Shown here: positions 10,785-62,310 of the stretch, in pieces
Layout of the letters: each line of letters opens with the position of its first letter
How positions within the stretch are numbered: position 1 is the first letter of the stretch
Assembly: GCF_965641715.1 (NCBI RefSeq)
Contig: NZ_OZ282453.1
DNA from: Escherichia coli
Lineage (GTDB): Bacteria > Pseudomonadota > Gammaproteobacteria > Enterobacterales > Enterobacteriaceae
Reading direction: 5' to 3' (one strand)
DNA: 64,000 bases
Position numbers and translations under genes: made by a program
Notes under the pieces: generated by a model
Told to the model about the DNA's origin: nothing
What the model saw: the letters and a program-made list of their open reading frames with translations, nothing else
The model's database searches: none

Positions 10785-11085
10785 CGAGCAGTATTCCTGA
10801 TTTTAAACGTGAACGCCGCTGGAAGAATTATCAGGTATAGAATGGCGTCGGGTGCTTGAGGCTGTCTGGCGTTAAGCATTCGCGAGGTTCCAGATGGACA
10901 AAAGCCCCAGGCGATATTTCTATCAACCTGAGGCCAGCGTTCGAACCTAAGCAATTCGGATGTTAGTCTCTTCTTTGCAGGGAGGCAAGACATGTGTATA
11001 TCACTGTAATTCGATATTTATGAGCAGCATCGAAAAATAGCCCGCTGATATCATCGATAATACTAAAAAAACAGGGAGGCTATTA

Positions 11086-13752
11086 ATGGAACCTTTTAAA
11101 TATATATGCCATTACTGGGGAAAATCCTCAAAAAGCCTGACGAAAGGAAATGATATTCATCTGTTAATTTATCATTGCCTTGATGTTGCTGCTGTTGCAG
11201 ATTGCTGGTGGGATCAATCAGTCGTACTGCAAAATACTTTTTGCCGAAATGAAATGCTATCAAAACAGAGGGTGAAGGCCTGGCTGTTATTTTTCATTGC
11301 TCTTCATGATATTGGAAAGTTTGATATACGATTCCAATATAAATCAGCAGAAAGTTGGCTGAAATTAAATCCTGCAACGCCATCACTTAATGGTCCATCA
11401 ACACAAATGTGCCGTAAATTTAATCATGGTGCAGCCGGTCTGTATTGGTTTAACCAGGATTCACTTTCAGAGCAATCTCCCGGGGATTTTTTCAGTTTTT
11501 TTGATGCCGCTCCTCATCCTTATGAGTCCTGGTTTCCATGGGTAGAGGCCGTTACAGGACATCATGGTTTTATATTACATTCCCAGGATCAAGATAAGTC
11601 GCGTTGGGAAATGCCAGCTTCTCTGGCATCTTATGCTGCGCAAGATAAACAGGCTCGTGAGGAGTGGATATCTGTACTCGAAGCATTATTTTTAACGCCA
11701 GCCGGGTTATCTATAAACGATATACCACCTGATTGTTCATCACTGTTAGCAGGTTTTTGCTCGCTTGCTGACTGGTTAGGTTCCTGGACCACAACGGATA
11801 CCTTTCTTTTCAAAGAAGATGCACCTTCAGGAATACAAGCGCTAAGAACATATTTTCAGGATAGACAGCAGGATGCGTGTCGGGTACTGGCGCTGAGTGG
11901 CCTTGTATCAAATAAGCGTCGTTATGACGGTGTACATGCCTTACTGGACAATGGCTATCAACCAAGACAATTACAGGTGTTGGTCGATGCTCTTCCTACA
12001 GCTCCCGGGCTGACGGTGATTGAGGCACCTACGGGATCAGGTAAAACCGAAACAGCGCTGGCCTATGCCTGGAAACTTATTGACCAACAACTTGCGGAGA
12101 GTGTTATTTTTGCCCTCCCTACACAAGCTACTGCAAATGCAATGCTCAGCAGAATGGAAGCGAACGCGAGCCGTTTATTTACCTCCCCAAATCTTATTCT
12201 TGCTCATGGTAATTCACGTTTTAACCACCTTTTTCAATCAATAAAATCACGCGCATTTACTGAGCAGGGGCAAGAAGAAGCGTGGGTTCAGTGTTGTCAG
12301 TGGTTGTCACAAAGCAATAAGAAAGTGTTTCTTGGGCAAATCGGCGTTTGCACTATTGATCAGGTGTTGATATCGGTATTGCCAGTTAAACACCGCTTTA
12401 TCCGTGGTTTGGGAATTGGTCGAAGTGTTTTAATTGTTGATGAAGTTCATGCTTACGACACCTATATGAACGGCTTGCTGGAGGCAGTGCTCAAGGCTCA
12501 GGCTGATGTGGGAGGGAGTGTTATTCTTCTTTCCGCAACCCTACCAATGAAACAAAAACAGAAACTTCTGGATACTTATGGTCTGCATACAGATCCAGTG
12601 GAAAATAACTCCGCATATCCACTTATTAACTGGCGAGGTGTGAATGGTGCGCAACGTTTTGATCTGCCAGCTCATCCAGAACAACTCCCGCCCCGCTTTT
12701 CGATTCAGCCAGAACCTATTTATTTAGCTGACATGTTACCTGACCTTACGATGTTAGAGCGAATGATCGCAGCGGCAAACGCGGGTGCACAAGTCTGCCT
12801 CATTTGCAATTTGGTTGACGTTGCACAACTATGCTTCCAACGGCTAAAGGAACTAAATGACACGCAAGTAGATATAGATTTGTTTCATGCGCGCTTTACG
12901 CTGAACGATCGTCGTGAAAAAGAGAATCGTGTCATTAGCAATTTCGGAAAAAATGGGGAGCGAAATGTTGGACGAATACTTGTCGCCACCCAGGTCGTGG
13001 AACAATCACTCGATGTAGATTTTGATTGGTTAATTACCCAGCATTGTCCCGCTGATTTGCTTTTCCAACGATTAGGCCGTTTACATCGCCATCATCGTAA
13101 ATATCGTCCCGCCGGTTTTGAGATTCCTCTGGCAACCGTTTTGCTGCCTGATGGCGAAGGTTACGGACGACATGAGCATATTTATAGCAACGTTAGAGTC
13201 ATGTGGCGGACGCAGCAACATATTGAGGAACTTAATGGAGCATCCTTATTTTTCCCTGATGCCTACCGGCAATGGCTGGATAGCATTTACGATGATGCTG
13301 AAATGGATGAGCCAGAATGGGTCATCAAAGGCATGGATAAGTTTGAAAGCGCTGAGTGTGAAAAGAGGTTCAAGGCTCGCAAGGTTCTGCAGTGGGCTGA
13401 AGAATATAGTTTGCAGGATAACGATGAAACCATTCTTGCGGTAACGAGGGATGGGGAAATGAGCCTGCCATTATTGCCTTATGTACAAACGTCTTCAGGT
13501 AAACAACTGCTCGATGGCCAGGTCTACGAGGACCTAAGTCATGAACAGCAGTATGAGGCTTTAGCACTTAATCGCGTCAATGTGCCATTTACCTGGAAAC
13601 GTAGTTTTTCTGAAGTAGTCGATGAAGATGGGTTACTTTGGCTGGAAGGAAGGCAGAATCAGGATGGATGGATCTGGCAGGGTAACAGTATTGTTATTAC
13701 CTACACTCGGGATGAAGGGATGACCAGAGTCATCCCTGCAAATCCCAAATAA
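11086..13752 (+). CDS. cas3: Cas3 nuclease/helicase, type I-E (888 aa)
   Basis: 888 aa; N-terminal HD domain (LLIYHCLDVAAV...HDIGKF), helicase Walker A GSGKTE and DEVH box; RBS AGGGAGG before ATG at 11086. Confidence 0.97.
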   Translation: MEPFKYICHYWGKSSKSLTKGNDIHLLIYHCLDVAAVADCWWDQSVVLQNTFCRNEMLSKQRVKAWLLFFIALHDIGKFDIRFQYKSAESWLKLNPATPSLNGPSTQMCRKFNHGAAGLYWFNQDSLSEQSPGDFFSFFDAAPHPYESWFPWVEAVTGHHGFILHSQDQDKSRWEMPASLASYAAQDKQAREEWISVLEALFLTPAGLSINDIPPDCSSLLAGFCSLADWLGSWTTTDTFLFKEDAPSGIQALRTYFQDRQQDACRVLALSGLVSNKRRYDGVHALLDNGYQPRQLQVLVDALPTAPGLTVIEAPTGSGKTETALAYAWKLIDQQLAESVIFALPTQATANAMLSRMEANASRLFTSPNLILAHGNSRFNHLFQSIKSRAFTEQGQEEAWVQCCQWLSQSNKKVFLGQIGVCTIDQVLISVLPVKHRFIRGLGIGRSVLIVDEVHAYDTYMNGLLEAVLKAQADVGGSVILLSATLPMKQKQKLLDTYGLHTDPVENNSAYPLINWRGVNGAQRFDLPAHPEQLPPRFSIQPEPIYLADMLPDLTMLERMIAAANAGAQVCLICNLVDVAQLCFQRLKELNDTQVDIDLFHARFTLNDRREKENRVISNFGKNGERNVGRILVATQVVEQSLDVDFDWLITQHCPADLLFQRLGRLHRHHRKYRPAGFEIPLATVLLPDGEGYGRHEHIYSNVRVMWRTQQHIEELNGASLFFPDAYRQWLDSIYDDAEMDEPEWVIKGMDKFESAECEKRFKARKVLQWAEEYSLQDNDETILAVTRDGEMSLPLLPYVQTSSGKQLLDGQVYEDLSHEQQYEALALNRVNVPFTWKRSFSEVVDEDGLLWLEGRQNQDGWIWQGNSIVITYTRDEGMTRVIPANPK

Positions 13753-14166
13753 CTTCGGGAATGATTGGTATCAATGACGATAACAAGACCAATAACGGTT
13801 TATCCCTACTTAAGTAGGGAAGGTGCACAATGTACATCTTCTTTTAATTTCCCGGTATGAGATTTTATATTCGCAGTATGAATATTTTATGTAATAAAAT
13901 TTATGGTAATTATTATAACTAAAAGTTTCTTTGATAATAAAACGAATAACTTGCAGATTTGAAATGCATGCATTATTGTCTTTAAACAATTCAACACATC
14001 TTAATATATGTATAGGTTAATTGTATTAAACCAATGAATATATTTTTGCAGTGAATGTGATTATTGAATTAATTACGCCGTATTTTTTCTTTGTTTTTAC
14101 CGATAACGGAAGTGTGCCGACGTATAGAAATGCAGGAGAAATGTCGGAGCATATGAAGGAGAACAA
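13753..14166 (+). promoter_or_regulatory. AT-rich cas3-casA intergenic region; expected site of the casA operon promoter
   Basis: 414 bp strongly AT-rich non-coding stretch directly upstream of casA; in K-12 this region holds the H-NS-silenced, LeuO-activated Pcas promoter (established knowledge, exact elements not mapped here). Confidence 0.45.
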
Positions 14167-15675
14167 ATGAATTTGCTTATTGATAACTGGATCCCTGTAC
14201 GCCCGCGAAACGGGGGGAAAGTCCAAATCATAAATCTGCAATCGCTATACTGCAGTAGAGATCAGTGGCGATTAAGTTTGCCCCGTGACGATATGGAACT
14301 GGCCGCTTTAGCACTGCTGGTTTGCATTGGGCAAATTATCGACCCGGCAAAAGATGACGTTGAATTTCGACATCGCATAATGAATCCGTTCACTGAAGAT
14401 GAGTTTCAACAACTCATCGCGCCGTGGATAGATATGTTCTATCTTAATCACGCAGAACATCCCTTTATGCAGACCAAAGGTGTCAAAGCAAATGATGTGA
14501 CTCCAATGGAAAAACTGTTGGCAGGGGTAAGCGGCGCGACGAATTGTGCTTTTGTCAATCAACCGGGTCAGGGTGAAGCATTATGTGGTGGATGCACTGC
14601 GATTGCGTTATTCAACCAGGCGAATCAGGCACCTGGTTTTGGTGGTGGCTTTAAAAGTGGTTTACGTGGAGGAACACCTATAACCACCTTCGTACGTGGG
14701 ATCGATCTTCGCTCGACGGTGTTACTCAATGTCCTCACAATACCTCGTCTTCAAAAACAATTTCCCAATGAATCACATACGGAAAACCAACCTACCTGGG
14801 TTAAGCCTGTCAAACCCAATGAATCTGTGCCAGCTTCGTCAATTGGCTTTGTCCGCGGCTTATTCTGGCAACCAGCGCATATTGAATTATGCGACCCCAT
14901 TGGGATTGGAAAATGTTCTTGCTGTGGGCAGGAAAGCAATTTGCGTTATACCGGTTTTCTTAAGGAAAAATTTACCTTTACAGTTAATGGGCTATGGCCC
15001 CATCCGCATTCCCCTTGTCTGGTAACAGTCAAGAAAGGGGAGGTTGAGGAAAAATTTCTTGCTTTCACCACCTCCGCACCATCATGGACACAAATCAGCC
15101 GAGTTGTGGTAGATAAGATTATTCAAAATGAAAATGGAAATCGCGTGGCGGCGGTTGTGAATCAATTCAGAAATATTGCGCCGCAAAGTCCTCTTGAATT
15201 GATTATGGGGGGATATCGTAATAATCAAGCATCTATTCTTGAACGGCGTCATGATGTGCTGATGTTTAATCAGGGGTGGCAACAATACGGCAATGTGATA
15301 AACGAAATAGTGACTGTTGGTTTGGGATATAAAACAGCCTTACGCAAGGCGTTATATACCTTTGCAGAAGGGTTTAAAAATAAAGACTTCAAAGGGGCCG
15401 GAGTCTCTGTTCATGAGACTGCAGAAAGGCATTTCTATCGACAGAGTGAATTATTAATTCCCGATGTTCTGGCGAATGTTAATTTTTCCCAGGCTGATGA
15501 GGTCATAGCTGATTTACGAGACAAACTTCATCAATTGTGTGAAATGCTATTTAATCAATCTGTAGCTCCCTATGCACATCATCCTAAATTAATAAGCACA
15601 TTAGCGCTTGCCCGCGCCACGCTATACAAACATTTACGGGAGTTAAAACCGCAAGGAGGGCCATCAAATGGCTGA
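14167..15675 (+). CDS. casA: Cascade large subunit Cse1/CasA (502 aa)
   Basis: 502 aa, N-terminus MNLLIDNWIPVRPRNGG; RBS AAGGAG; first gene of Cascade operon. Confidence 0.95.
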   Translation: MNLLIDNWIPVRPRNGGKVQIINLQSLYCSRDQWRLSLPRDDMELAALALLVCIGQIIDPAKDDVEFRHRIMNPFTEDEFQQLIAPWIDMFYLNHAEHPFMQTKGVKANDVTPMEKLLAGVSGATNCAFVNQPGQGEALCGGCTAIALFNQANQAPGFGGGFKSGLRGGTPITTFVRGIDLRSTVLLNVLTIPRLQKQFPNESHTENQPTWVKPVKPNESVPASSIGFVRGLFWQPAHIELCDPIGIGKCSCCGQESNLRYTGFLKEKFTFTVNGLWPHPHSPCLVTVKKGEVEEKFLAFTTSAPSWTQISRVVVDKIIQNENGNRVAAVVNQFRNIAPQSPLELIMGGYRNNQASILERRHDVLMFNQGWQQYGNVINEIVTVGLGYKTALRKALYTFAEGFKNKDFKGAGVSVHETAERHFYRQSELLIPDVLANVNFSQADEVIADLRDKLHQLCEMLFNQSVAPYAHHPKLISTLALARATLYKHLRELKPQGGPSNG

Positions 15676-16150
15676 TGAAATTGATGCAATGGCTTTATAT
15701 CGAGCCTGGCAACAACTGGATAATGGAGCATGTGCGCAAATTAGACGTGTTTCAGAACCTGATGAATTACGCGATATCCCTGCGTTTTATAGGCTGGTGC
15801 AACCTTTTGGTTGGGAGAACCCACGTCACCAGCAGGCTCTTTTGCGCATGGTGTTTTGCCTGAGCGCAGGAAAGAATGTCATCCGACATCAGGACAAAAA
15901 ACCGGAGCAAACAACAGGTATCTCGTTGGGAAGAGCTTTAGCCAATAGTGGAAGAATTAACGAGCGCCGTATCTTTCAATTAATTCGGGCTGACAGAACA
16001 GCCGATATGGTCCAGTTACGTCGATTACTTACTCACGCCGAACCCGTACTTGACTGGCCATTAATGGCCAGGATGTTGACCTGGTGGGGAAAGCGCGAAC
16101 GCCAGCAACTTCTGGAAGATTTTGTATTGACCACAAACAAAAATGCGTAA
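15668..16150 (+). CDS. casB: Cascade small subunit Cse2/CasB (160 aa)
   Basis: 160 aa, N-terminus MADEIDAMALYRAWQQLDNGA; start overlaps casA stop. Confidence 0.95.
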   Translation: MADEIDAMALYRAWQQLDNGACAQIRRVSEPDELRDIPAFYRLVQPFGWENPRHQQALLRMVFCLSAGKNVIRHQDKKPEQTTGISLGRALANSGRINERRIFQLIRADRTADMVQLRRLLTHAEPVLDWPLMARMLTWWGKRERQQLLEDFVLTTNKNA

Positions 16151-16162
16151 GGAAACCTTTCT

Positions 16163-17254
16163 ATGTCTAACTTTATCAATATTCATGTTCTGATCTCTCA
16201 CAGCCCTTCATGTCTGAACCGCGACGATATGAACATGCAGAAAGACGCTATTTTCGGCGGGAAAAGACGAGTAAGAATTTCAAGTCAAAGCCTTAAACGT
16301 GCGATGCGTAAAAGTGATTATTACGCACAAAATATTGGTGAATCCAGTCTCAGAACAATTCATCTTGCACAATTACGTGATGTTCTTCGGCAAAAACTTG
16401 GTGAACGTTTTGACCAAAAAATCATCGATAAGACATTAGCGCTGCTCTCCGGTAAATTAGTTGATGAAGCCGAAAAGATTTCTGCCGATGCGGTTACTCC
16501 CTGGGTTGTGGGAGAAATAGCCTGGTTCTGTGAGCAGGTTGCAAAAGCAGAGGCTGATAATCTGGATGATAAAAAGCTGCTCAAAGTTCTTAAGGAAGAT
16601 ATTGCCGCCATACGTGTGAATTTACAGCAGGGTGTTGATATTGCGCTTAGTGGAAGAATGGCAACCAGCGGCATGATGAGTGAGTTGGGAAAAGTTGATG
16701 GTGCAATGTCCATTGCGCATGCGATCACTACTCATCAGGTTGATTCTGATATTGACTGGTTCACCGCTGTAGATGATTTACAGGAACAAGGTTCTGCACA
16801 TCTGGGAACTCAGGAATTTTCATCGGGTGTTTTTTATCGTTATGCCAACATTAACCTCGCTCAACTTCAGGAAAATTTAGGTGGTGCCTCCAGGGAGCAG
16901 GCTCTGGAAATTGCAACCCATGTTGTTCATATGCTGGCAACAGAGGTCCCTGGAGCAAAACAGCGTACTTATGCCGCTTTTAACCCTGCGGATATGGTAA
17001 TGGTTAATTTCTCCGATATGCCACTTTCTATGGCAAATGCTTTTGAAAAAGCGGTTAAAGCGAAAGATGGCTTTTTGCAACCGTCTATACAGGCGTTTAA
17101 TCAATATTGGGATCGCGTTGCCAATGGATATGGTCTGAACGGAGCTGCTGCGCAATTCAGCTTATCTGATGTAGACCCAATTACTGCTCAAGTTAAACAA
17201 ATGCCTACTTTAGAACAGTTAAAATCCTGGGTTCGTAATAATGGCGAGGCGTGA
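16163..17254 (+). CDS. casC: Cascade backbone subunit Cas7e/CasC (363 aa)
   Basis: 363 aa, N-terminus [22 protein letters not shown]. Confidence 0.95.
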
Positions 17255-17256
17255 AC

Positions 17257-17931
17257 ATGAGATCTTATTTGATCTTGCGGCTTGCTGGGCCAATGCAAGC
17301 CTGGGGGCAGCCGACCTTTGAAGGAACGCGACCTACCGGAAGATTTCCGACCCGAAGCGGGTTATTAGGGCTACTCGGGGCTTGTCTTGGGATCCAACGT
17401 GATGATACTTCTTCATTACAGGCGTTATCAGAGAGTGTGCAATTTGCAGTGCGCTGCGATGAACTCATTCTTGACGATCGTCGTGTGTCTGTAACGGGGT
17501 TGCGTGATTACCATACAGTCCTTGGAGCGCGAGAAGATTACCGTGGTTTGAAAAGTCATGAAACGATTCAAACATGGCGCGAATATTTATGTGATGCCTC
17601 CTTTACCGTCGCTCTCTGGTTAACACCCCATGCAACGATGGTTATCTCAGAACTTGAAAAAGCAGTATTAAAGCCTCGGTATACACCCTACCTGGGGCGG
17701 AGAAGTTGCCCACTAACACACCCGCTTTTTTTGGGGACATGTCAGGCATCGGATCCTCAGAAGGCGCTATTAAATTATGAGCCCGTTGGCGGCGATATAT
17801 ATAGTGAGGAATCAGTTACAGGGCATCATTTAAAATTTACGGCGCGCGACGAACCGATGATCACCTTACCTCGACAATTTGCTTCCCGAGAATGGTATGT
17901 GATTAAAGGAGGTATGGATGTATCTCAGTAA
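17257..17931 (+). CDS. casD: Cascade subunit Cas5e/CasD (224 aa)
   Basis: ATG at 17257 just after casC stop; N-terminus MRSYLILRLAGPMQAWGQ. Confidence 0.93.
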   Translation: MRSYLILRLAGPMQAWGQPTFEGTRPTGRFPTRSGLLGLLGACLGIQRDDTSSLQALSESVQFAVRCDELILDDRRVSVTGLRDYHTVLGAREDYRGLKSHETIQTWREYLCDASFTVALWLTPHATMVISELEKAVLKPRYTPYLGRRSCPLTHPLFLGTCQASDPQKALLNYEPVGGDIYSEESVTGHHLKFTARDEPMITLPRQFASREWYVIKGGMDVSQ

Positions 17932-18517
17932 AGTCATCATTGCCAGGGCCTGGAGCAGGGATCTTTACCAACTTCACCAGGGATTATGGCATTTATTTCC
18001 AAACAGACCGGATGCTGCTCGTGATTTTCTTTTTCATGTTGAGAAGCGAAACACACCAGAAGGCTGTCATGTTTTATTGCAGTCAGCGCAAATGCCTGTT
18101 TCAACTGCCGTTGCGACAGTCATTAAAACTAAACAGGTTGAATTTCAACTTCAGGTTGGTGTTCCACTCTATTTTCGGCTTCGGGCAAATCCGATCAAAA
18201 CTATTCTCGACAATCAAAAGCGCCTGGACAGTAAAGGGAATATTAAACGCTGTCGGGTTCCGTTAATAAAAGAAGCAGAACAAATCGCGTGGTTGCAACG
18301 TAAATTGGGCAATGCGGCGCGCGTTGAAGATGTGCATCCCATATCGGAACGGCCACAGTATTTTTCTGGGGAAGGTAAAAATGGAAAAATCCAAACGGTT
18401 TGCTTTGAAGGTGTGCTCACCATTAACGATGCGCCAGCGTTAATAGATCTTTTACAGCAAGGTATTGGGCCAGCCAAATCGATGGGATGTGGTTTGCTAT
18501 CTTTGGCTCCACTATGA
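17918..18517 (+). CDS. casE: CRISPR RNA endoribonuclease Cas6e/CasE (199 aa)
   Basis: 199 aa, N-terminus MYLSKVIIARAWSRDLYQLHQGLWHLFPNRPDAARDFLFHVE; overlaps casD end. Confidence 0.95.
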   Translation: MYLSKVIIARAWSRDLYQLHQGLWHLFPNRPDAARDFLFHVEKRNTPEGCHVLLQSAQMPVSTAVATVIKTKQVEFQLQVGVPLYFRLRANPIKTILDNQKRLDSKGNIKRCRVPLIKEAEQIAWLQRKLGNAARVEDVHPISERPQYFSGEGKNGKIQTVCFEGVLTINDAPALIDLLQQGIGPAKSMGCGLLSLAPL

Positions 18518-18532
18518 TTGAGGTGTAATAAA

Positions 18533-19736
<1,204 letters not shown>

Positions 19737-19841: not shown

Positions 19842-20481
19842 GAGTTCCCCGCGCCAGCGGGGATAAACCGTGTCCGAATTACTACACCGCCGAACAAAAC
19901 GCGAGTTCCCCGCGCCAGCGGGGATAAACCATGATCGCCGCCATGATTACTTGCCTTTTTTGTGAGTTCCCCGCGCCAGCGGGGATAAACCGGTCAGCAC
20001 CGCGTGCTCTGCCTGCAGGCTGTCGAGTTCCCCGCGCCAGCGGGGATAAACCGTCTATATCGGTGCATATATCCCCGACGAAAAAGAGTTCCCCGCGCCA
20101 GCGGGGATAAACCGTATTCATATAAATCCTTATTTTAGATACAGCGGAGTTCCCCGCGCCAGCGGGGATAAACCGCCAGCTTCATAGATCTGGCTCACGT
20201 AGAGCGCGAGTTCCCCGCGCCAGCGGGGATAAACCAGCGGCGCATAACTGATAAACAATAAATGCCGCGAGTTCCCCGCGCCAGCGGGGATAAACCGGGC
20301 CATCACGGTTTTATTCAGGTTACTGCAGACGAGTTCCCCGCGCCAGCGGGGATAAACCGCTGCGCGATCCAGCGCTCGACTTTGATCGTGAGAGTTCCCC
20401 GCGCCAGCGGGGATAAACCGGGCGCACTGGATGCGATGATGGATATCACTTAGAATTCCCCGCCCCTGCGGTAGAACACCC
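19842..20481 (+). CRISPR. Type I-E CRISPR array: 10 full 29-bp repeats, 10 spacers (nine of 32 bp, one of 33 bp), plus one degenerate terminal repeat
   Basis: Repeat GAGTTCCCCGCGCCAGCGGGGATAAACCG at 19842, 19903, 19964, 20025, 20086, 20147, 20208, 20269, 20331, 20392 (period 61, once 62); repeats 2 and 7 end in A rather than G; degenerate repeat GAATTCCCCGCCCCTGCGGTAGAACACCC at 20453..20481. Confidence 0.97.
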
Positions 20482-30568: not shown

Positions 30569-31561
30569 ATGAGTCAGAATACGCTGAAAGTTCATGATTT
30601 AAATGAAGATGCGGAATTTGATGAGAACGGAGTTGAGGTTTTTGACGAAAAGGCCTTAGTAGAAGAGGAACCCAGTGATAACGATTTGGCCGAAGAGGAA
30701 CTGTTATCGCAGGGAGCCACACAGCGTGTGTTGGACGCGACTCAGCTTTACCTTGGTGAGATTGGTTATTCACCACTGTTAACGGCCGAAGAAGAAGTTT
30801 ATTTTGCGCGTCGCGCACTGCGTGGAGATGTCGCCTCTCGCCGCCGGATGATCGAGAGTAACTTGCGTCTGGTGGTAAAAATTGCCCGCCGTTATGGCAA
30901 TCGTGGTCTGGCGTTGCTGGACCTTATCGAAGAGGGCAACCTGGGGCTGATCCGCGCGGTAGAGAAGTTTGACCCGGAACGTGGTTTCCGCTTCTCAACA
31001 TACGCAACCTGGTGGATTCGCCAGACGATTGAACGGGCGATTATGAACCAAACCCGTACTATTCGTTTGCCGATTCACATCGTAAAGGAGCTGAACGTTT
31101 ACCTGCGAACCGCACGTGAGTTGTCCCATAAGCTGGACCATGAACCAAGTGCGGAAGAGATCGCAGAGCAACTGGATAAGCCAGTTGATGACGTCAGCCG
31201 TATGCTTCGTCTTAACGAGCGCATTACCTCGGTAGACACCCCGCTGGGTGGTGATTCCGAAAAAGCGTTGCTGGACATCCTGGCCGATGAAAAAGAGAAC
31301 GGTCCGGAAGATACCACGCAAGATGACGATATGAAGCAGAGCATCGTCAAATGGCTGTTCGAGCTGAACGCCAAACAGCGTGAAGTACTGGCACGTCGAT
31401 TCGGTTTGCTGGGGTACGAAGCGGCAACACTGGAAGATGTAGGTCGTGAAATTGGCCTCACCCGTGAACGTGTTCGCCAGATTCAGGTTGAAGGCCTGCG
31501 CCGTTTGCGCGAAATCCTGCAAACGCAGGGGCTGAATATCGAAGCGCTGTTCCGCGAATAA
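30569..31561 (+). CDS. rpoS: RNA polymerase sigma factor RpoS (sigma-38), full length 330 aa
   Basis: ORF 30533..31561; ATG at 30569 gives [25 protein letters not shown]; no premature stop. Confidence 0.97.
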
Positions 31562-31577
31562 GTAAGCATCTGTCAGA

Positions 31578-31609
31578 AAGGCCAGTCTCAAGCGAGGCTG
31601 GCCTTTTTC
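31578..31609 (+). terminator. rho-independent terminator downstream of rpoS
   Basis: aaaggccagtctcaagcgaggctggcctttttctttt: GC stem then T-run. Confidence 0.7.
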
Positions 31610-31680
31610 TTTTGTTTGGGAAGCTTGTGTTTTTGTCGCCTGGATAAGACACGTCAGCGTCCTACCCGGCAATTTGCATC

Positions 31681-32088
31681 CTATGTGTTCATCATCTTGC
31701 GCACCAGCTGCACAAACAGCTCCTGCTCTTCTGCACTCAAACGCCCCAAAAATTCCTCATCCACGCTGTCACCAATCGGTATCGCCGCAGCAAGTATCTT
31801 TTCTCCTTCGGCAGTCAGCCAGACAAAGCGACGCCGCTTGTCAGCGGCATCATGTTCACGTCTGACTAAGCCACGATTCTCCATTCTTGCCAACATTTCT
31901 GCCAACGTTGCTTTGGTGCTGACTGCTGCTTCTATCAGTGCCACCTGTTCGATACCAGGCTTATCAGCAATGGCGCGCATCACCGCATACTGTGGTTTGG
32001 TCAGGTCAGGTAACTCGTGCTGCCAGCGAGCCGTGTGCTGCTGAAAAAGCTGTCGTAACTGATGGAACGCTTTATTTCGTAACGCCAT
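31681..32088 (-). CDS. MarR/SlyA-family transcriptional regulator (135 aa)
   Basis: 135 aa with winged-helix region (KPQYAVMRAIADKPGIEQVALIEAAVSTKATLAEMLARMENRGLVRR); divergent from decarboxylase genes. Confidence 0.8.
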   Translation of the reverse strand: MALRNKAFHQLRQLFQQHTARWQHELPDLTKPQYAVMRAIADKPGIEQVALIEAAVSTKATLAEMLARMENRGLVRREHDAADKRRRFVWLTAEGEKILAAAIPIGDSVDEEFLGRLSAEEQELFVQLVRKMMNT

Positions 32089-32234
32089 GTAAACTCCGGG
32101 CTAATTCTCTGTCGCTATCATAGCGGTTTTTTAGTGACGAAGAAGATGTTGTTACTTTTCAATCCTTGTCGCTGTGGAAATGAAGGAGTATGTTAATAAT
32201 AATGTTCGTATACGAACAATTAAGAGAATAAGCA

Positions 32235-32828
32235 ATGAAACTGATCGTCGGGATGACAGGGGCTACCGGTGCGCCTCTTGGTGTGGCATTACTGCAAGCG
32301 CTGCGGGAGATGCCGAATGTCGAGACTCATCTGGTGATGTCGAAGTGGGCGAAAACCACCATTGAACTGGAAACGCCTTACAGCGCCCGCGATGTTGCTG
32401 CCCTCGCTGACTTCAGCCATAACCCGGCGGATCAGGCGGCGACCATCTCCTCAGGTTCCTTTCGTACCGACGGCATGATCGTTATTCCGTGCAGTATGAA
32501 AACGCTCGCCGGTATCCGCGCTGGTTACGCTGATGGCCTGGTAGGGCGCGCGGCGGACGTCGTGCTCAAAGAAGGCCGCAAACTGGTGCTGGTGCCGCGT
32601 GAAATGCCGCTTAGCACCATCCATCTCGAAAATATGCTCGCACTTTCACGCATGGGCGTGGCGATGGTGCCGCCGATGCCTGCCTTTTATAACCATCCCG
32701 AAACGGTAGATGACATTGTCCACCATGTGGTAGCCCGCGTGCTGGATCAATTTGGCCTCGAACATCCCCACGCCAGGCGCTGGCAAGGATTGCCGCAGGC
32801 CCGGAATTTTTCTCAGGAGAATGAATAA
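32235..32828 (+). CDS. UbiX/Pad1-family flavin prenyltransferase (prenyl-FMN synthase; BsdB/EcdB-like, 197 aa)
   Basis: 197 aa, N-terminus MKLIVGMTGATGAPLGVALLQAL, typical of UbiX flavoprotein family. Confidence 0.85.
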   Translation: MKLIVGMTGATGAPLGVALLQALREMPNVETHLVMSKWAKTTIELETPYSARDVAALADFSHNPADQAATISSGSFRTDGMIVIPCSMKTLAGIRAGYADGLVGRAADVVLKEGRKLVLVPREMPLSTIHLENMLALSRMGVAMVPPMPAFYNHPETVDDIVHHVVARVLDQFGLEHPHARRWQGLPQARNFSQENE

Positions 32829-34255
32829 TGGCATTTGATGATTTACGCAGCTTTTTACAGGCGCTTGATGACCACGGCCAGTTACTGAAAATCAGCGAAG
32901 AGGTGAACGCGGAACCGGATCTGGCTGCCGCTGCCAACGCCACCGGGCGTATCGGCGATGGTGCACCGGCGCTGTGGTTTGATAATATTCGCGGTTTTAC
33001 CGATGCCCGCGTGGCGATGAATACCATCGGTTCCTGGCAGAACCACGCGATTTCCTTGGGCCTGCCGCCAAACACCCCGGTTAAAAAACAGATTGATGAG
33101 TTTATCCGCCGCTGGGATAACTTCCCGATCGCCCCGGAGCGCCGCGCCAATCCAGCCTGGGCGCAGAACACCGTCGATGGTGACGAGATTAATCTGTTCG
33201 ATATCCTGCCGCTGTTTCGTTTAAACGACGGTGATGGCGGTTTCTATCTCGACAAAGCGTGCGTGGTTTCCCGCGATCCGCTCGACCCGGATAACTTCGG
33301 CAAGCAGAACGTCGGCATCTACCGCATGGAAGTGAAGGGCAAGCGTAAGCTCGGCCTGCAACCGGTGCCGATGCACGATATCGCCCTGCATCTGCATAAA
33401 GCAGAAGAGCGCGGTGAAGATCTGCCGATTGCCATCACCCTGGGTAACGATCCGATCATCACGCTGATGGGCGCAACGCCACTGAAATACGATCAATCTG
33501 AGTACGAAATGGCAGGCGCGCTGCGTGAAAGCTCGTACCCGATCGCCACCGCCCCGCTGACCGGTTTTGATGTGCCGTGGGGTTCAGAAGTGATCCTCGA
33601 AGGGGTCATCGAAAGCCGTAAACGCGAAATCGAGGGGCCGTTCGGTGAGTTTACCGGACACTACTCCGGCGGGCGTAACATGACCGTGGTGCGCATCGAT
33701 AAAGTCTCTTACCGCACCAGGCCGATTTTCGAATCGCTGTACCTCGGCATGCCGTGGACCGAAATCGACTACCTGATGGGGCCAGCCACCTGTGTGCCGC
33801 TGTATCAGCAACTTAAAGCCGAGTTCCCGGAAGTACAGGCGGTGAACGCCATGTACACCCACGGCCTGCTGGCGATTATCTCCACCAAAAAACGCTACGG
33901 CGGCTTTGCCCGCGCGGTGGGCCTGCGTGCGATGACCACGCCGCACGGTCTGGGCTACGTAAAGATGGTGATTATGGTCGATGAAGACGTTGACCCGTTC
34001 AACCTGCCGCAGGTGATGTGGGCGCTCTCCTCGAAAGTAAATCCGGCAGGGGATTTGGTGCAGTTGCCGAATATGTCCGTGCTGGAACTCGACCCTGGCT
34101 CAAGCCCGGCGGGGATCACCGACAAGCTGATTATCGACGCCACCACGCCTGTCGCCCCGGACAACCGTGGTCACTACAGCCAGCCGGTGGTGGATTTGCC
34201 GGAAACCAAAGCCTGGGCTGAAAAACTGACCGCTATGCTGGCCACACGTAAATAA
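32828..34255 (+). CDS. UbiD-family (prFMN-dependent) aromatic acid decarboxylase (BsdC/EcdC-like, 475 aa)
   Basis: 475 aa, UbiD-like length and composition; ATGA overlap with upstream UbiX-like gene. Confidence 0.85.
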   Translation: MAFDDLRSFLQALDDHGQLLKISEEVNAEPDLAAAANATGRIGDGAPALWFDNIRGFTDARVAMNTIGSWQNHAISLGLPPNTPVKKQIDEFIRRWDNFPIAPERRANPAWAQNTVDGDEINLFDILPLFRLNDGDGGFYLDKACVVSRDPLDPDNFGKQNVGIYRMEVKGKRKLGLQPVPMHDIALHLHKAEERGEDLPIAITLGNDPIITLMGATPLKYDQSEYEMAGALRESSYPIATAPLTGFDVPWGSEVILEGVIESRKREIEGPFGEFTGHYSGGRNMTVVRIDKVSYRTRPIFESLYLGMPWTEIDYLMGPATCVPLYQQLKAEFPEVQAVNAMYTHGLLAIISTKKRYGGFARAVGLRAMTTPHGLGYVKMVIMVDEDVDPFNLPQVMWALSSKVNPAGDLVQLPNMSVLELDPGSSPAGITDKLIIDATTPVAPDNRGHYSQPVVDLPETKAWAEKLTAMLATRK

Positions 34256-34265
34256 GGAGAACAAG

Positions 34266-34502
34266 ATGATTTGTCCACGTTGTGCCGATGAACAGATTGA
34301 AGTGATGGCGAAATCGCCGGTGAAAGATGTCTGGACGGTATATCAGTGCCAGCATTGCCTTTATACCTGGCGCGATACCGAACCGCTGCGCCGTACCAGC
34401 CGCGAACATTATCCCGAAGCGTTCCGCATGACGCAGAAAGATATTGATGACGCGCCAATGGTGCCGAGCATTCCGCCGCTGCTGGCGGAAGGTAAGCGCT
34501 AA
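34266..34502 (+). CDS. Small zinc-ribbon subunit of phenolic acid decarboxylase (BsdD/EcdD-like, 78 aa)
   Basis: 78 aa with CPRC...CQHC motif; immediately downstream of UbiD-like gene. Confidence 0.7.
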   Translation: MICPRCADEQIEVMAKSPVKDVWTVYQCQHCLYTWRDTEPLRRTSREHYPEAFRMTQKDIDDAPMVPSIPPLLAEGKR

Positions 34503-34542
34503 TAAAAAGTGCCGGGTAGTGGCTTTGCTTTACCCGGCCTCA

Positions 34543-35199
34543 TTACTTTATTTTATAAAATGACAGCCGCCCGCTTTTCGGCGATCCGGTATCAATATAA
34601 ATCTGGTTAGCGAACGTCTGAATGTTATCAAACATCATATGTCCAAATATAAAATAATCAGCGCCGTTTATTTGTTGTAACTCGCCATTAAGCGATTTCT
34701 GCACACGATCAACAGGCCAGAGTAATTCGCTCTCCGCTATTTCTTTACCAAAGAGATATTCACTCCCCGGATAATCTGCATGTACGATGACATATTTTAT
34801 GTTGTCGTTAGTGATTTCAATAATATGTGGAAGGTGATGGAATTTCAGCAACAGATCTGTAGCTTCTTTTTGCTCTGAATCATTTAAATCGAAAAACCAG
34901 TCACCACCGCTGGCAAGCCACATATTGCCATCGCCGGTCGCGAACGCATCCAGCGCCATTGCTTCGTGGTTGCCTTTAACGGAGATAAACCAGGGCTGGT
35001 TTAGCAGGCGCAGGACGTTAAGACTCTCCGGCCCACGATCAATATTATCGCCGACAGAAATAAGTAAGTCGGTTTCGGGGAAAAAAGAGAGTTGATGTAA
35101 GCGGGATTGTAATAACTGATATTCACCATGAATATCACCAACGACCCATATATGGCGATAGTGATGGGCATTGATTTTTTGATAGCGTGTAGATGGCAT
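34543..35199 (-). CDS. pphB: Serine/threonine protein phosphatase 2 (218 aa)
   Basis: 218 aa; metallophosphatase motifs GDIHG, GDNIDRG, GNHE. Confidence 0.9.
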   Translation of the reverse strand: MPSTRYQKINAHHYRHIWVVGDIHGEYQLLQSRLHQLSFFPETDLLISVGDNIDRGPESLNVLRLLNQPWFISVKGNHEAMALDAFATGDGNMWLASGGDWFFDLNDSEQKEATDLLLKFHHLPHIIEITNDNIKYVIVHADYPGSEYLFGKEIAESELLWPVDRVQKSLNGELQQINGADYFIFGHMMFDNIQTFANQIYIDTGSPKSGRLSFYKIK

Positions 35200-35304: not shown

Positions 35305-37866
35305 TTACACCAGACTCTTCAAGCGATAAATCCACTCCAGCGCCTGACGCGGGGTGAGTGAATCCGGATCGAGGTTTTCCAGTGCCTCGACCGCAGGCGA
35401 GGTTTCTTCCGGTACGGACAGCAAAGACATTTGCGTACCATCCACTTGCGTAGCGGCGGCGTTCGGCGAAATGCTTTCCAGCTCACGCAGTTTTTGCCGT
35501 GCGCGCTTAATAACCTCTTTTGGCACGCCGGCCAGAGCTGCAACCGCCAGGCCGTAGCTTTTGCTCGCCGCGCCATCCTGCACGCTATGCATAAAGGCAA
35601 TGGTGTCGCCGTGCTCCAGTGCATCGAGATGCACGTTGGCGACGCCTTCCATTTTCTCCGGTAACTGGGTCAGCTCGAAATAGTGGGTGGCAAACAGCGT
35701 CAACGCCTTAATCTTATTCGCCAGATTTTCCGCGCACGCCCATGCCAGTGACAGACCATCGTAAGTGGACGTTCCACGCCCGATCTCATCCATCAATACC
35801 AGACTATATTCGGTGGCGTTATGTAAAATATTGGCGGTTTCAGTCATCTCCACCATAAAGGTTGAGCGCCCGGAAGCCAGGTCATCTGCCGCGCCTACGC
35901 GGGTAAAGATGCGATCGATAGGTCCAATCTCGACTTTTTGTGCCGGTACATAGCTGCCGATGTAGGCCATCAGCGCAATCAGTGCGGTCTGGCGCATATA
36001 GGTACTTTTACCGCCCATGTTCGGGCCGGTAATAATCAACATCCGGCGCTGCGGTGACAGATTCAGCGGGTTGGCGATAAATGGCTCGTTCAGCACCTGT
36101 TCAACCACCGGATGGCGGCCTTCGGTAATGCGAATGCCCGGTTTATCAATAAAGGTCGGGCAGGTGTAGTTCAGGGTATAGGCCCGTTCCGCCAGGTTCA
36201 CCAGCACGTCGAGTTCCGCCAGCGCGCTCGCGCTCTGTTGCAACGCTTCCAGATGCGGCAACAGCAGGTCGAACAGCTCTTCATAAAGCTGTTTTTCCAG
36301 AGCCAGTGCTTTGCCTTTTGAAGTGAGGACTTTATCTTCGTACTCTTTTAGCTCTGGAATGATGTAGCGCTCGGCGTTTTTCAGCGTCTGGCGACGCATA
36401 TAGTTGATAGGTGCCAGATGGCTTTGCCCACGGCTGATTTGAATGTAGTAGCCGTGCACCGCATTAAAGCCAACTTTTAGCGTGTCCAGGCCGGTACGTT
36501 CACGCTCGCGGACTTCCAGACGCTCCAGATAATCGGTCGCGCCGTCAGCCAGCGCGCGCCACTCATCCAGCTCTTCGTTATAGCCCGATGCGATAACACC
36601 ACCGTCGCGTACCAGCACCGGCGGTGTGTCGATGATTGCTCGCTCCAGCAGATCGCGCAGCTCGGCAAACTCGCCCATCTTCTCACGTAGCGCCTGTACC
36701 GGTGCACTATCGACAGTTTCTAACTGCGCACGCAGCTCCGGCAGTTGCTGGAAAGCGTGGCGCATACGGGCCAGATCGCGTGGGCGAGCAGTTCGTAAAG
36801 CCAGACGTGCCAGAATACGTTCCAGGTCGCCGACCTGACGCAGTACCGGCTGTAGCCCGGCGGTGAAATCCTGCAATGCGCCAATAGTTTGCTGGCGCTC
36901 AAGCAACACGCGGGTATCGCGCACTGGCATATGCAGCCAGCGTTTCAGCATACGGCTGCCCATCGGCGTGACGGTGCAGTCGAGCACAGAAGCCAGCGTA
37001 TTTTCCGCACCACCCGCCAGGTTCTGGGTGATTTCCAGATTACGACGCGTCGCGGCATCCATAATGATGCTGTCCTGCTCACGTTCCATGGTGATGGAAC
37101 GAATATGCGGCAGAGTCGTACGTTGGGTATCTTTCGCATACTGCAACAGACAACCGGCAGCACAAAGTCCGCGCGGCGCGTTCTCGACGCCAAAACCGAC
37201 CAGATCGCGAGTGCCAAATTGCAGATTCAACTGCTGGCGCGCGGTGTCGATTTCAAACTCCCACAGCGGGCGACGGCGCAGGCCGCGACGGCCTTCAATT
37301 AACGACATTTCAGCAAAATCTTCTGCATACAGCAATTCCGCAGGATTAGTGCGTTGCAGTTCTGCCGCCATCGTTTCCCGGTCAGCCGGTTCGCTCAGGC
37401 GAAAACGCCCGGAACTGATATCCAGCGTCGCGTAGCCGAAACCTTTGCTGTCCTGCCAGATAGCCGCCAACAGGTTGTCCTGACGCTCCTGCAACAGGGC
37501 TTCATCGCTGATGGTGCCTGGCGTAACGATACGCACAACTTTGCGCTCAACCGGACCTTTGCTGGTCGCCGGATCGCCAATTTGTTCGCAGATGGCAACG
37601 GACTCTCCCTGATTCACCAGTTTGGCGAGGTAGTTTTCCACCGCATGGTAGGGAATCCCCGCCATCGGGATCGGCTCTCCCGCTGAAGCGCCGCGTTTGG
37701 TCAGTGAGATATCCAGCAGTTGCGACGCACGTTTTGCGTCGTCATAAAACAGTTCGTAAAAGTCACCCATCCGATAAAACAGCAGGATCTCGGGATGCTG
37801 GGCTTTCAGCTTGAGATACTGCTGCATCATTGGCGTATGGGCGTCGAAATTTTCTATTGCACTCAT
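35305..37866 (-). CDS. mutS: DNA mismatch repair protein MutS (853 aa)
   Basis: 853 aa, N-terminus [40 protein letters not shown]; Walker [10 protein letters not shown]. Confidence 0.98.
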
Positions 37867-52852: not shown

Positions 52853-52894
52853 TTCTTCATCAGGGAATTCAGGGAATTGAACATCAGAACAGGG

Positions 52895-53650
52895 ATGTGC
52901 GCTTTTTTATTGAGCTTAGTGCAGCCTGCACAGGCCACCAGCTTTACCGAATATCTGCCAATGAGTGGCAGCGAATATGCGCAAAAGCGGGCGCTGAAAC
53001 CTCTCCTGACCATGCCTTATTATACCGAGCAAACTTGGCATTTTAGAAAAATCGGCGTTGCTGGCGTGACGCTTGAGAAGATGCCAAATGAGGAGGATTA
53101 CTGGCAATTAACCGCTAAAGACCGCGCCGGTAAATCCTGGACGGTGCCAGTGGGGTTGCTGGCAAATATGGCGGGCAAAGGGCAGCTCTATCGCGCCGAT
53201 CTGGATCGTAACGGCATTCAGGATCTGGTTATCTGGTTGCCAAGTGCCGCTAATGGTCTGGCGCCCTATGCACATTTAATCCTCATGACGTTCACGCGCG
53301 AAGGCCGTCCCTGTGTCTTTGAACCCTGGGGATTCTACACCGCAAACAAAACTGGCGTAGATGATTTGCTGGATTTGCAAGGCAATGGTCACACGCAATT
53401 GCTGGATATGCAGTTTAATTCTGGTTACTGGATAACCAGTCTGTATCAGGTAAAAGACGCCAAATGGCAGCGTGTTCACGGCTGGTTTGGCAAGTTAAGC
53501 TATCCCGCGCTCACGCGATTTACTTATACCCCCAACCGTAAACTCGTCCTCAAACCCATCGCCGGACGCGACCCGCAAACGGAAGATCTGGCGCTGACGC
53601 AGCGTTGCTTGATAAAGGGGGATGTGCTTGATGGGGTGAACCAGAACTGA
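52895..53650 (+). CDS. Hypothetical exported protein (about 251 aa, predicted signal peptide)
   Basis: ORF 52877..53650 with TTG start; more likely ATG at 52895 giving MCAFLLSLVQPAQA|TSF (signal-peptide-like, AQA cleavage motif); two D-x-D/Q-x-N-G repeats (DLDRNGIQDLV, DLQGNGHTQLLD); no family recognised. Confidence 0.65.
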   Translation: MCAFLLSLVQPAQATSFTEYLPMSGSEYAQKRALKPLLTMPYYTEQTWHFRKIGVAGVTLEKMPNEEDYWQLTAKDRAGKSWTVPVGLLANMAGKGQLYRADLDRNGIQDLVIWLPSAANGLAPYAHLILMTFTREGRPCVFEPWGFYTANKTGVDDLLDLQGNGHTQLLDMQFNSGYWITSLYQVKDAKWQRVHGWFGKLSYPALTRFTYTPNRKLVLKPIAGRDPQTEDLALTQRCLIKGDVLDGVNQN

Positions 53651-53703
53651 CTTTTTGCAGAGTGGCTATGTGGATTTTGGGGGTAATTATATAGCGCACA
53701 AGT

Positions 53704-53741
53704 GTTTACATATTGTGAACTTGGATTTGATGAGCTATAGT
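53704..53741 (+). promoter_or_regulatory. Candidate promoter with overlapping operator palindrome upstream of higB-like gene
   Basis: Imperfect inverted repeat GTTTACA-tat-TGTGAAC (53704..53720) overlapping a TTGTGA -35-like hexamer, 17-bp spacer, then TATAGT (53736..53741); about 70 bp upstream of toxin ATG. Confidence 0.35.
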
Positions 53742-53811
53742 TTCCGAACACATAAGGATAGAACTCGCAGATGTGGCTGTTTACTTACTATAAGGAAGTT
53801 AAAACTTAAAA

Positions 53812-54123
53812 ATGCACATCATTTCTAAAGCGCCATTTGAAGAGTGTGCGCGCAAATATCCTAACGACGCTCTGGCTCTACACTCATTGTATCGGGTTAT
53901 TAAGGAAACGGATTTTTCTACACCAGAAGAAATGCGAACGGCGTTTCCCAACCTCGACAATTTTAGATATCGCAACAAATGGTACGTTCTGGATGTCGGC
54001 GGGAACAATCTTAGGGTTATTGCCTACATAAACTTTGTTAATAAGCGGTTCTTTGTGAAGCACATAACGAATCACGCAGAGTATGACAAACTGACACGTT
54101 ACTACAGAGAGAACAAAGAATGA
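53812..54123 (+). CDS. HigB-like type II toxin (RelE/ParE superfamily mRNA interferase, 103 aa)
   Basis: 103 aa; shares the HigB pattern FPNLDNF.Y....YVLDVGGNNLRVIAY...........KHITNHAEYD with K-12 HigB as recalled; stop overlaps downstream ATG (ATGA). Confidence 0.8.
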   Translation: MHIISKAPFEECARKYPNDALALHSLYRVIKETDFSTPEEMRTAFPNLDNFRYRNKWYVLDVGGNNLRVIAYINFVNKRFFVKHITNHAEYDKLTRYYRENKE

Positions 54124-54539
54124 CTGCTAATGCTGCACGCGCTGTTAAAGCAACAAGAGAACTGGTCAATGCAGTCCCCTTTCTGGGAGGCAGTGACTCA
54201 GAAGATGATTATCGTGAAGCACTGGAACTGGTCGAATATTTGATTGAAGAAGATGACACCAATCCACTTATCGACTTTCTGGCGAGCCGCATTGCAGAGT
54301 ATGAAAACAACAACGAAAAGTTTGCAGAGTTCGACAAAGCCGTTGCGGCAATGCCGGTTGGCGTGGCGTTACTTCGCACGTTGATTGATCAACATAATCT
54401 GACCTATGCGGATTTGAAGAACGAAATCGGCTCTAAATCCCTGGTCAGTCAGATTTTGTCTGGACAACGATCCCTGACAATATCCCACATTAAGGCACTT
54501 TCAGCCCGATTTGGCGTTAAGCCGGAATGGTTTCTTTGA
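54120..54539 (+). CDS. HigA-like antitoxin (HTH XRE-family, 139 aa)
   Basis: 139 aa; VPFLGGSDSEDDYREALELVEYLIEED...NPLIDFLASRIAEYE...EFAEFDKAVAAMPVGVALLRTLIDQHNLTYADL...IGSKSLVSQILSGQRSLT parallels HigA; translationally coupled to toxin. Confidence 0.8.
   Translation: MTANAARAVKATRELVNAVPFLGGSDSEDDYREALELVEYLIEEDDTNPLIDFLASRIAEYENNNEKFAEFDKAVAAMPVGVALLRTLIDQHNLTYADLKNEIGSKSLVSQILSGQRSLTISHIKALSARFGVKPEWFL

Positions 54540-61904: not shown

Positions 61905-62310
<406 letters not shown>

Follow-up and report, generated by a model that had tools for sequence, protein, structure and literature searches.

The DNA analysed here is a 64-kb window of Escherichia coli sequence (64,000 nucleotides), and between its rpoS and pphB genes lie four genes that K-12 does not have. 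A blastn comparison of the window with the K-12 derivative L002 places the K-12-absent segment at 31608-34543 (2,936 bp). This agrees within 2-3 bases with the limits of 31610-34542 that an earlier sequence-only reading had proposed. The upstream flank is rpoS, which ends at 31561. A terminator scan finds its intrinsic terminator hairpin on the plus strand at 31575-31608, and K-12 homology stops at 31607, within that hairpin. The downstream flank is pphB, which lies on the minus strand at 34543-35199 and is convergent with ecdD, the last gene of the segment. K-12 has 6,097 bp of ygbN-ygbI at the same site, and blastn against the K-12 derivative finds no ygbI-N sequence anywhere in the 64-kb window. 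The four open reading frames have the lengths and orientations first given for them: a MarR-type protein of 135 aa, a UbiX-like protein of 197 aa, a UbiD-like protein of 475 aa and a zinc ribbon of 78 aa. The annotation of the segment is identical in E. coli PS10-3, 57_142493 and Res13. Its length, its span from the rpoS terminator to pphB, its hosA-ecdBCD content and its lack of ygb sequence are those of the 2.9-kb O157:H7-type segment (LeClerc 1999). PMC4209514 describes that rpoS-mutS segment as carrying slyA/hosA-pad1-yclC-yclD without ygbI-N, which is 'pattern I' of Ewers 2014.

The regulator gene hosA (31681-32088) is on the minus strand, divergent from ecdBCD. Its product scores 45.7 bits on the Pfam MarR model PF01047, where the cut-off is 24.6. 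It is identical to PDB 8AGA, 'Transcriptional regulator HosA', at 133 of 135 residues, and the two substitutions are I98 and V126 in this allele. Judged by these matches the product is HosA, a predicted repressor that senses 4-hydroxybenzoate (4-HBA). Roy and Ranjan (2016), as relayed by PMC13355054, PMC6261655 and PMC6694116, report that HosA represses the operon and that 4-HBA releases it. A HosA reporter responded 38-fold and specifically to 4-HB in vivo (PMC13355054). The Kd of HosA for 4-HBA is 4.7 uM, and 4-HBA dissociates HosA in EMSA (PMC6261655).

The HosA operator is the perfect palindrome GTTCGTATACGAAC at 32204-32217, 17 bp upstream of the ecdB ATG. The palindrome extends to 16 bp if the flanking T and A are counted (32203-32218). 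It is identical, flanks included, to the published HosA binding-site oligonucleotides (PMC6261655 supplement). The sequence occurs once in the window, and no second HosA site was found there at two or fewer mismatches. We place a candidate ecdB promoter on the plus strand at 32166-32194, with a -35 of TTGTCG (32166-32171), a 17-nt spacer and a -10 of TATGTT (32189-32194). A consensus promoter scan suggests an overlapping, weaker alternative at 32175-32203. We prefer the hexamers at 32166-32194 because their key bases are conserved across genera: the conserved columns of an 11-sequence intergenic alignment are the -35 TTG and the -10 TAnnnT. The same alignment gives a candidate hosA -10 hexamer, TATGAT, on the minus strand at 32117-32122, inside the conserved block CTATCATAG. 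We infer both promoters from the sequence, and their hexamers should be read as candidates. The operator then falls between the candidate ecdB promoter and the first structural gene. Later summaries of Roy and Ranjan (2016) likewise put it downstream of the transcription start site, with repression lifted by 4-HBA. All 76 loci of other species that encode HosA contain a version of the operator, deviating from it at no more than 4 of 16 positions (no more than 3 in 75 of the loci). In 56 of the 76, the first structural gene starts 14-24 bp downstream of this site. A further operator-like site, beside the -35, exists in Klebsiella, Enterobacter, Kluyvera and Pseudocitrobacter but is lacking in E. 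coli.

The three remaining genes are adjacent on the plus strand in the order B-C-D. The ecdB stop overlaps the ecdC start, and 10 nt separate ecdC from ecdD. ecdB (pad1, 32235-32828) encodes a UbiX-family flavin prenyltransferase of 197 aa. It passes the NCBIfam VdcB model (312.2 bits, cut-off 290) as well as UbiX-family subfamily models, and it matches PDB 1SBZ, the Pad1 of O157:H7, over 197 of 197 residues (E=1.6e-129). ecdC (yclC, 32828-34255) encodes the UbiD-family catalytic subunit of 475 aa. It passes the VdcC model with 787.8 bits against a cut-off of 650, and it aligns end to end with ShdC, chain A of PDB 7AE4 (E=6e-160). Four EcdC motifs, NVGIYR (161-166), MHDIA (182-186), SEYEM (224-228) and EGPFGE (269-274), align with ShdC 7AE4 and are identical or conservatively matched there. 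The key residues N161-R166, H183, E225/E227 and E269-E274 are all present. From what is known of UbiD and Fdc1 we take the motif residues to be the metal- and prFMN-binding and Glu-Arg-Glu catalytic residues. The ERE motif is named in PMC8379154. ecdD (yclD, 34266-34502) encodes the zinc-ribbon activator subunit of 78 aa. It passes the VdcD model (121.2 bits, cut-off 30) and matches ShdD of 7AE4 (E=3e-11). Its cysteines 3, 6, 28 and 31 form two CXXC knuckles and coincide with the zinc-ligand positions of ShVdcD. The same paper describes those ligands and states that VdcC activity requires VdcD (PMC8379154). The proteins of this strain are 0-4 residues away from other E. coli alleles; residue 473 of EcdC, for example, is T here and A in four other E. 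coli alleles.

These NCBIfam, Pfam and PDB matches bear out the first assignment to the BsdBCD/EcdBCD-type arrangement in protein family, gene order and type of regulator. What we computed is the gene content, the family membership, the conserved catalytic, zinc and operator elements and the genomic distribution. Repression, the response to 4-HBA and the enzyme substrates come from the literature on other E. coli alleles. We are confident that the segment is an intact hosA-ecdBCD module, which has also been published as slyA/kpdR-pad1-yclC-yclD or the HAD operon. Almost certainly, too, hosA-ecdBCD works as a ligand-gated system for the non-oxidative decarboxylation of hydroxyarylic acids. In the scheme that we favor, EcdB would prenylate reduced FMN to give prFMN. 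EcdC, with its UbiD fold, would use prFMN to remove CO2 reversibly, turning 4-HBA into phenol and vanillate into guaiacol. EcdD would bind EcdC through its Cys4 zinc ribbon and keep the Glu-Arg-Glu catalytic loops in place. When there is no substrate a HosA dimer would sit on the operator, just downstream of the ecdB promoter, and block transcription. Binding of 4-HBA would make the repressor leave the DNA, and the operon would be expressed. Table 2 of PMC6644310 (citing Lupa 2005) lists 4-HBA as the best substrate of O157:H7 EcdCD and vanillate as another. The published HosA and EcdCD work thus agrees with the sequence-only reading, which had proposed a decarboxylase for phenolic acids (4-hydroxybenzoate and vanillate) under MarR-type control. 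We infer that its role is to ease the stress that phenolic acids or the breakdown products of parabens cause in the gut and the environment; a gain in fitness might come from detoxification, from relief of pH or from the phenol that is formed.

One can imagine that HosA acts chiefly as a global or virulence regulator, on motility and fliC, and that its control of the decarboxylase is secondary. This is compatible with the decarboxylase system described above, and a bioRxiv preprint (10.1101/2024.04.24.590444) summarises reports that HosA affects flagellar motility in EPEC. We still consider it unlikely. The linkage of hosA, operator and decarboxylase holds in 76 of 80 species loci, and these include non-pathogens as well as Vibrio and Shewanella. 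This pattern implies that HosA is a dedicated local regulator, and the single operator in the 64-kb window also speaks against the global role. The same synteny survey weighs against the often-made claim that hosA is specific to pathogens and was acquired horizontally.

It is quite improbable that some other hydroxyarylic acid (protocatechuate, gallate or a dietary phenolic, for example) is the substrate that matters physiologically and that 4-HBA is just a laboratory inducer. Table 2 of PMC6644310 gives several substrates for the Klebsiella enzyme KpBCD, and it lists the E. coli EcdCD with just two tested substrates. However, 4-HBA is the one marked as best, and HosA discriminates against close structural analogues of 4-HBA (PMC6694116), so the inducer of the repressor and the best substrate of the enzyme coincide.

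We are very doubtful that the physiological direction is the opposite one, with the enzyme acting as a phenol carboxylase and adding CO2 to phenol when oxygen is absent and CO2 plentiful. Both the title of Lupa 2005 and the review PMC6644310 speak of reversible decarboxylases/phenol carboxylases. However, the inducer is the acid 4-HBA and not phenol. E. coli is not known to have a downstream anaerobic benzoyl-CoA pathway, and at physiological bicarbonate the equilibrium favors decarboxylation.

It is scarcely credible that the B and C genes are a spare UbiX/UbiD pair decarboxylating 3-octaprenyl-4-hydroxybenzoate for ubiquinone biosynthesis. In its favor, the superfamilies are the same, EcdB passes UbiX-family models, the match of E. 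coli UbiD (2IDB) to EcdC has E=7e-47, and EcdB, as a member of the UbiX/Pad1 family, very probably produces the prFMN cofactor known from UbiX. Against it, EcdC reaches only 174.6 bits on the UbiD equivalog NF008175 (cut-off 788) yet passes VdcC, no ubiquinone genes are nearby, and the module comes with a VdcD subunit and with a repressor that senses 4-HBA. K-12 and other complete E. coli genomes, at least 3,000 in all, are without 80% or more of the module. We reject an assignment to the ubiquinone pathway because of the NCBIfam scores and the gene neighbourhood. The folds and the prFMN chemistry are common to UbiX/UbiD and EcdB/EcdC, but the ecd module adds a D subunit, takes a soluble, non-prenylated substrate, and is inducible and dispensable.

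The closest known systems are the hosA-ecdBCD loci of E. coli O157:H7, UMN026 and E2348/69, which have the same genes, order, lengths, operator and position from rpoS to pphB-mutS. We found allelic substitutions only, and no structural or organisational difference from them. The Klebsiella KpdBCD, Salmonella StdBCD and Enterobacter cloacae 4-hydroxybenzoate decarboxylase genes are orthologues at the same rpoS-mutS site with the same operator. Their EcdC is 96-97% identical and their HosA orthologue about 72-81%. In Salmonella and Phytobacter the module is inverted relative to rpoS. ShdBCD/VdcCD of Sedimentibacter hydroxybenzoicus (7AE4) and BsdBCD/VdcBCD of Bacillus subtilis are the same B-C-D three-subunit enzyme, and they act on the same substrates as published for EcdCD (4-HBA and vanillate). 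EcdD is 10 residues longer than ShdD. The regulator differs as well: here it is the divergent MarR-type HosA, whereas B. subtilis BsdBCD has the LysR-type BsdA.

Among 5,426 complete E. coli genomes, RefSeq shows this four-gene set in 2,379, and at least 1,530 of the 5,426 carry both hosA-ecdBCD and ygbI-N. The module is therefore not an alternative to ygbI-N. It had been written that K-12 carries ygbI-ygbN there instead; this is right about the content of K-12, but the word 'instead' is misleading. The word 'island' misleads as well, since many Enterobacteriaceae genera have the module at this chromosomal site between rpoS and mutS. In 56 of 80 other Enterobacterales species no more than 7 kb separates it from rpoS or mutS, which implies that K-12 lost the module and that it is no recent island. 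Base composition had also been brought in, with the genes said to be more GC-rich than the rpoS 3' flank. The numbers bear this out (57.6% for ecdB and ecdC, 51.9% for rpoS), but there is no anomaly. The GC content of the segment is 55.2% and that of the window 52.4%. The segment is not anomalous since mutS itself has 56.2%, and at 55% the module is inside the core-gene range. The outlier is pphB, with 42%.

The intergenic region between ecdD and pphB has a hairpin at 34511-34538 (GCCGGGTA ... TACCCGGC). As read from the sequence, it is probably a REP-like bidirectional terminator between the two convergent genes. It marks the junction of the layout that has ecd only, and this junction recurs in Escherichia sp. 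E1V33, in Pseudocitrobacter and, among 5,426 E. coli genomes, in at least 532. We considered, and rejected, an origin of this layout in a KO11FL-like arrangement with both modules that recently lost ygbI-N: neither KO11FL junction matches the 29 bp at 34515-34543. The junction must be old rather than a fresh deletion scar because these 29 bp are common to Escherichia sp. E1V33 and Pseudocitrobacter.

It must be noted that the genes, structures, regulator, operator, inducer, substrates and rpoS-mutS polymorphism are all already published. The module is intact and ordinary in this strain, and we found no sequence evidence against its identity as hosA-ecdBCD. Its interest is practical. The module contributes gut phenol, from which phenyl sulfate derives, and PMC13230720 uses the O157:H7 protein as its 'Had' reference. 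HosA is in use as a 4-hydroxybenzoate biosensor, and the layout of the rpoS-mutS region serves for typing E. coli lineages.

A separate observation concerns the conservation of EcdC. Where the locus is rpoS-linked in other Enterobacterales species, EcdC has a median identity of 96.4%, compared with 93.3% for MutS and 74.9% for NlpD. In Vibrio and Shewanella EcdC is still 88% identical, while HosA is down to about 50%. This is more conservation than one would expect of a dispensable accessory enzyme, yet about half of the complete E. coli genomes are without the module. EcdC could be under a second strong selection and be lost in certain lifestyles, for instance if it supplies prFMN or phenol as a gut signal or weapon, but we regard this as improbable. 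The alternative is that tight structural constraints act on a hexameric, domain-swinging enzyme.

Blastn against a K-12 derivative finds the window collinear with K-12 up to 31607 and from 34544 onwards. In the interval the window has a 2,936-bp segment and K-12 an unrelated 6,097 bp of ygbN-ygbI. No ygb sequence was found by blastn across the whole 64-kb window. The limits that the sequence-only reading gave to the segment (31610-34542) are accurate to 2-3 bases; blastn places them at 31608-34543. In the ORF list rpoS, upstream of the segment, stops at 31561. It is followed by hosA (31681-32088, minus strand, 135 aa), an AT-rich spacer of 146 bp (32089-32234, 36% GC), and then ecdB (32235-32828, 197 aa), ecdC (32828-34255, 475 aa) and ecdD (34266-34502, 78 aa), all on the plus strand. 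The ecdB stop overlaps the ecdC start. Both pphB (34543-35199) and mutS (35305-37866) are on the minus strand, convergent with the ecd operon. At 31638-31670, past the rpoS terminator and before the hosA 3' end, is a REP-like palindromic unit (GCCTGGATAAGACACGTCAGCGTCCTACCCGGC) in degenerate form; the unit at the same position in E. coli KO11FL is better preserved.

The assignment of these genes to UbiX, UbiD, zinc-ribbon and MarR families holds. EcdB, EcdC and EcdD pass the curated NCBIfam cut-offs for VdcB (312.2 against 290), VdcC (787.8 against 650) and VdcD (121.2 against 30), and EcdC is below the threshold of the true UbiD equivalog (174.6 vs 788). The Pfam domains of the module are Flavoprotein, UbiD_N/UbiD/UbiD_C and MarR. 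EcdB matches O157:H7 Pad1 (PDB 1SBZ, "probable aromatic acid decarboxylase") over its full length (E=1.6e-129), EcdC matches VdcC/ShdC of Sedimentibacter hydroxybenzoicus (PDB 7AE4, E=6e-160), and EcdD matches ShdD (E=3e-11). The regulator is identical at 133 of 135 residues to PDB 8AGA, "Transcriptional regulator HosA". EcdC retains the motifs NVGIYR (161-166), MHDIA (182-186), SEYEM (224-228) and EGPFGE (269-274). The cysteines of EcdD are at 3, 6, 28 and 31, exactly the positions of the ShVdcD zinc ligands (PMC8379154). The module is intact, since its proteins equal those of four other E. coli alleles in length and differ from them by 0-4 residues.

This locus is textbook-level, fully characterised and already known. 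According to PMC13355054 and bioRxiv 10.1101/2024.04.24.590444, HosA is a repressor of the decarboxylase operon and of its own gene that is released by 4-hydroxybenzoate (4-HBA). Its Kd for 4-HBA is 4.7 uM (PMC6261655), close analogues do not affect it (PMC6694116), and a HosA reporter circuit gave specific induction of up to 38-fold (PMC13355054). The substrates listed for O157:H7 EcdCD are 4-hydroxybenzoate, the best, and vanillate (PMC6644310), and VdcC activity is strictly dependent on VdcD (PMC8379154). The published work thus agrees with the interpretation as a phenolic acid decarboxylase under MarR-type control. Comparison with characterised EcdBCD/BsdBCD/KpdBCD-type enzymes and alignment of the region to K-12 and O157, here or in the literature, come out as expected, as do the decarboxylation assays and inducer-reporter fusions already published.

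The age of the module is a different matter, and the word island is misleading here. An EcdC query of one genome per species gave 80 loci (L006-L085), in Citrobacter, Klebsiella, Enterobacter, Kluyvera, Leclercia, Kosakonia, Atlantibacter, Franconibacter, Mangrovibacter, Cedecea and Pseudocitrobacter among others. A divergent HosA homologue is directly upstream in 76 of the 80, ecdD is present in 79 and ecdB in 66. rpoS or mutS is within 7 kb in 56 of these loci, and both genes are in 43. The orientation is that of the window in 46 and inverted in 5 (Salmonella, Phytobacter). Since it occupies the rpoS-mutS site across many genera, hosA-ecdBCD is a long-standing resident of that site in the Enterobacteriaceae and no recent acquisition by E. 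coli. The same distribution argues against the pathogen-specific acquisition from Shigella proposed in one preprint.

Composition does not support a foreign origin either. The ecd genes are GC-richer than rpoS, as the sequence-only reading said (57.6% for ecdB and ecdC vs 51.9%; segment 55.2%, window 52.4%), but mutS is at 56.2% and the real outlier of the region is pphB (42.3% GC, GC3 42.9%). Of the 80 foreign loci only 5 contain pphB, so it is this gene, more than the decarboxylase module, that looks like a lineage-specific insertion here.

Conservation of EcdC is unusually high for the product of an accessory gene, with a median identity of 96.4% in rpoS-linked loci of other species, against 93.3% for MutS, 88.3% for EcdB, 74.9% for NlpD and 73.9% for HosA. 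In Vibrio salinus and Shewanella mangrovi EcdC is still at 88% and HosA only at ~50%. Eleven species (L039, L053, L055, L062, L066, L068, L074, L075, L080, L082, L085) have hosA-ecdC-ecdD, with ecdB missing from its place between hosA and ecdC; presumably their prFMN comes from the housekeeping UbiX.

Among 5,426 complete E. coli genomes, 2,379 have at least 80% of the segment and 4,577 at least 80% of ygbI-N, so at least 1,530 have both. KO11FL is one of these, in the order rpoS-hosA-ecdBCD-ygbN...ygbI-pphB-mutS. The exact ecdD-pphB junction of the window, with the ecd module only, is in at least 532 E. coli genomes, including PS10-3, 57_142493 and Res13. These layouts are the known four-pattern mutS-rpoS polymorphism, already described with its 2.9-kb O157:H7-type segment (PMC4209514). 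The hairpin terminator after ecdD in KO11FL (AATAAAAGGTCCGATGCCCATCGGACC) is kept at the left junction of K-12, so K-12 appears to derive from the layout with both by clean loss of hosA-ecdBCD. The ecd-only layout is also old, since the hairpin at the window's ecdD-pphB junction is common to Escherichia sp. E1V33 and Pseudocitrobacter.

A perfect palindrome, TGTTCGTATACGAACA, spans 32203-32218 in the hosA-ecdB spacer. PMC6261655 gives in its supplement oligonucleotides with the HosA binding site, ...TAATAATAAC-GTT(T)CGTATACGAAC-AATTAAGAGAATAAACATGAG, and ...taataataaTGTTCGTATACGAACAattaagagaataagcaATG in the window has that same sequence in an identical context. Its 14-bp core occurs once in the 64 kb. 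Every one of the 76 loci with a HosA homologue has the operator, with no more than 4 mismatches in 16 (no more than 3 in 75 of them), and in 56 it is 14-24 bp ahead of the first structural gene. It is one of three conserved elements in a spacer alignment of 11 genomes. Another, just upstream of it, is a TTG...17 nt...TAnnnT pair (32166-32171 and 32189-32194), a candidate ecdB promoter. The third, a CTATCATAG block near hosA, is a candidate hosA -10. This geometry would put the operator at or just past the ecdB transcription start, which agrees with the HosA site downstream of the start, blocking RNA polymerase, that bioRxiv 10.1101/2024.04.24.590444 gives in its summary of Roy & Ranjan 2016. 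Klebsiella, Enterobacter, Kluyvera and Pseudocitrobacter (L008, L009, L019, L021, L040) have a second operator-like site (GATCGTRTACGAAC) adjoining the candidate ecdB -35, aligned to 32140-32165 of the window. It is absent from E. coli, Salmonella and Citrobacter in the spacer alignment, and the E. coli spacer is ~25 bp shorter.

Over the 25-kb stretch 20000-44999 none of the 5,426 complete E. coli genomes exceeds 98.8% identity, and mutS-ygbA shares just 96.9% with K-12. A Shigella or an under-sampled lineage may be the source, or the stretch may be a recombinant mosaic around mutS. The CRISPR array at 19842-20420 is of type I-E and has 10 repeats (TRF gave only 2.6 copies). In cas1 and cas2, the cas block upstream of it (11086-19450) shares only ~73% identity with Res13, otherwise the closest genome, and is therefore of a different cas allele group. 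Between cysH and cas3 a sok antitoxin RNA (Rfam RF01794, 102.6 bits; 10850-11006) lies beside a hok/gef-type gene. A 1.7-kb insertion relative to Res13 (52877-54539), between hycI and ascB, contains a HigB-toxin/HTH-antitoxin pair (PF09907, 80.7 bits; PF01381, 37.7 bits) and an ORF of 257 aa that matches nothing in Pfam. At 61922-62309 a 97-bp unit built from REP/BIME-like palindromes occurs in four tandem copies (90% matches).
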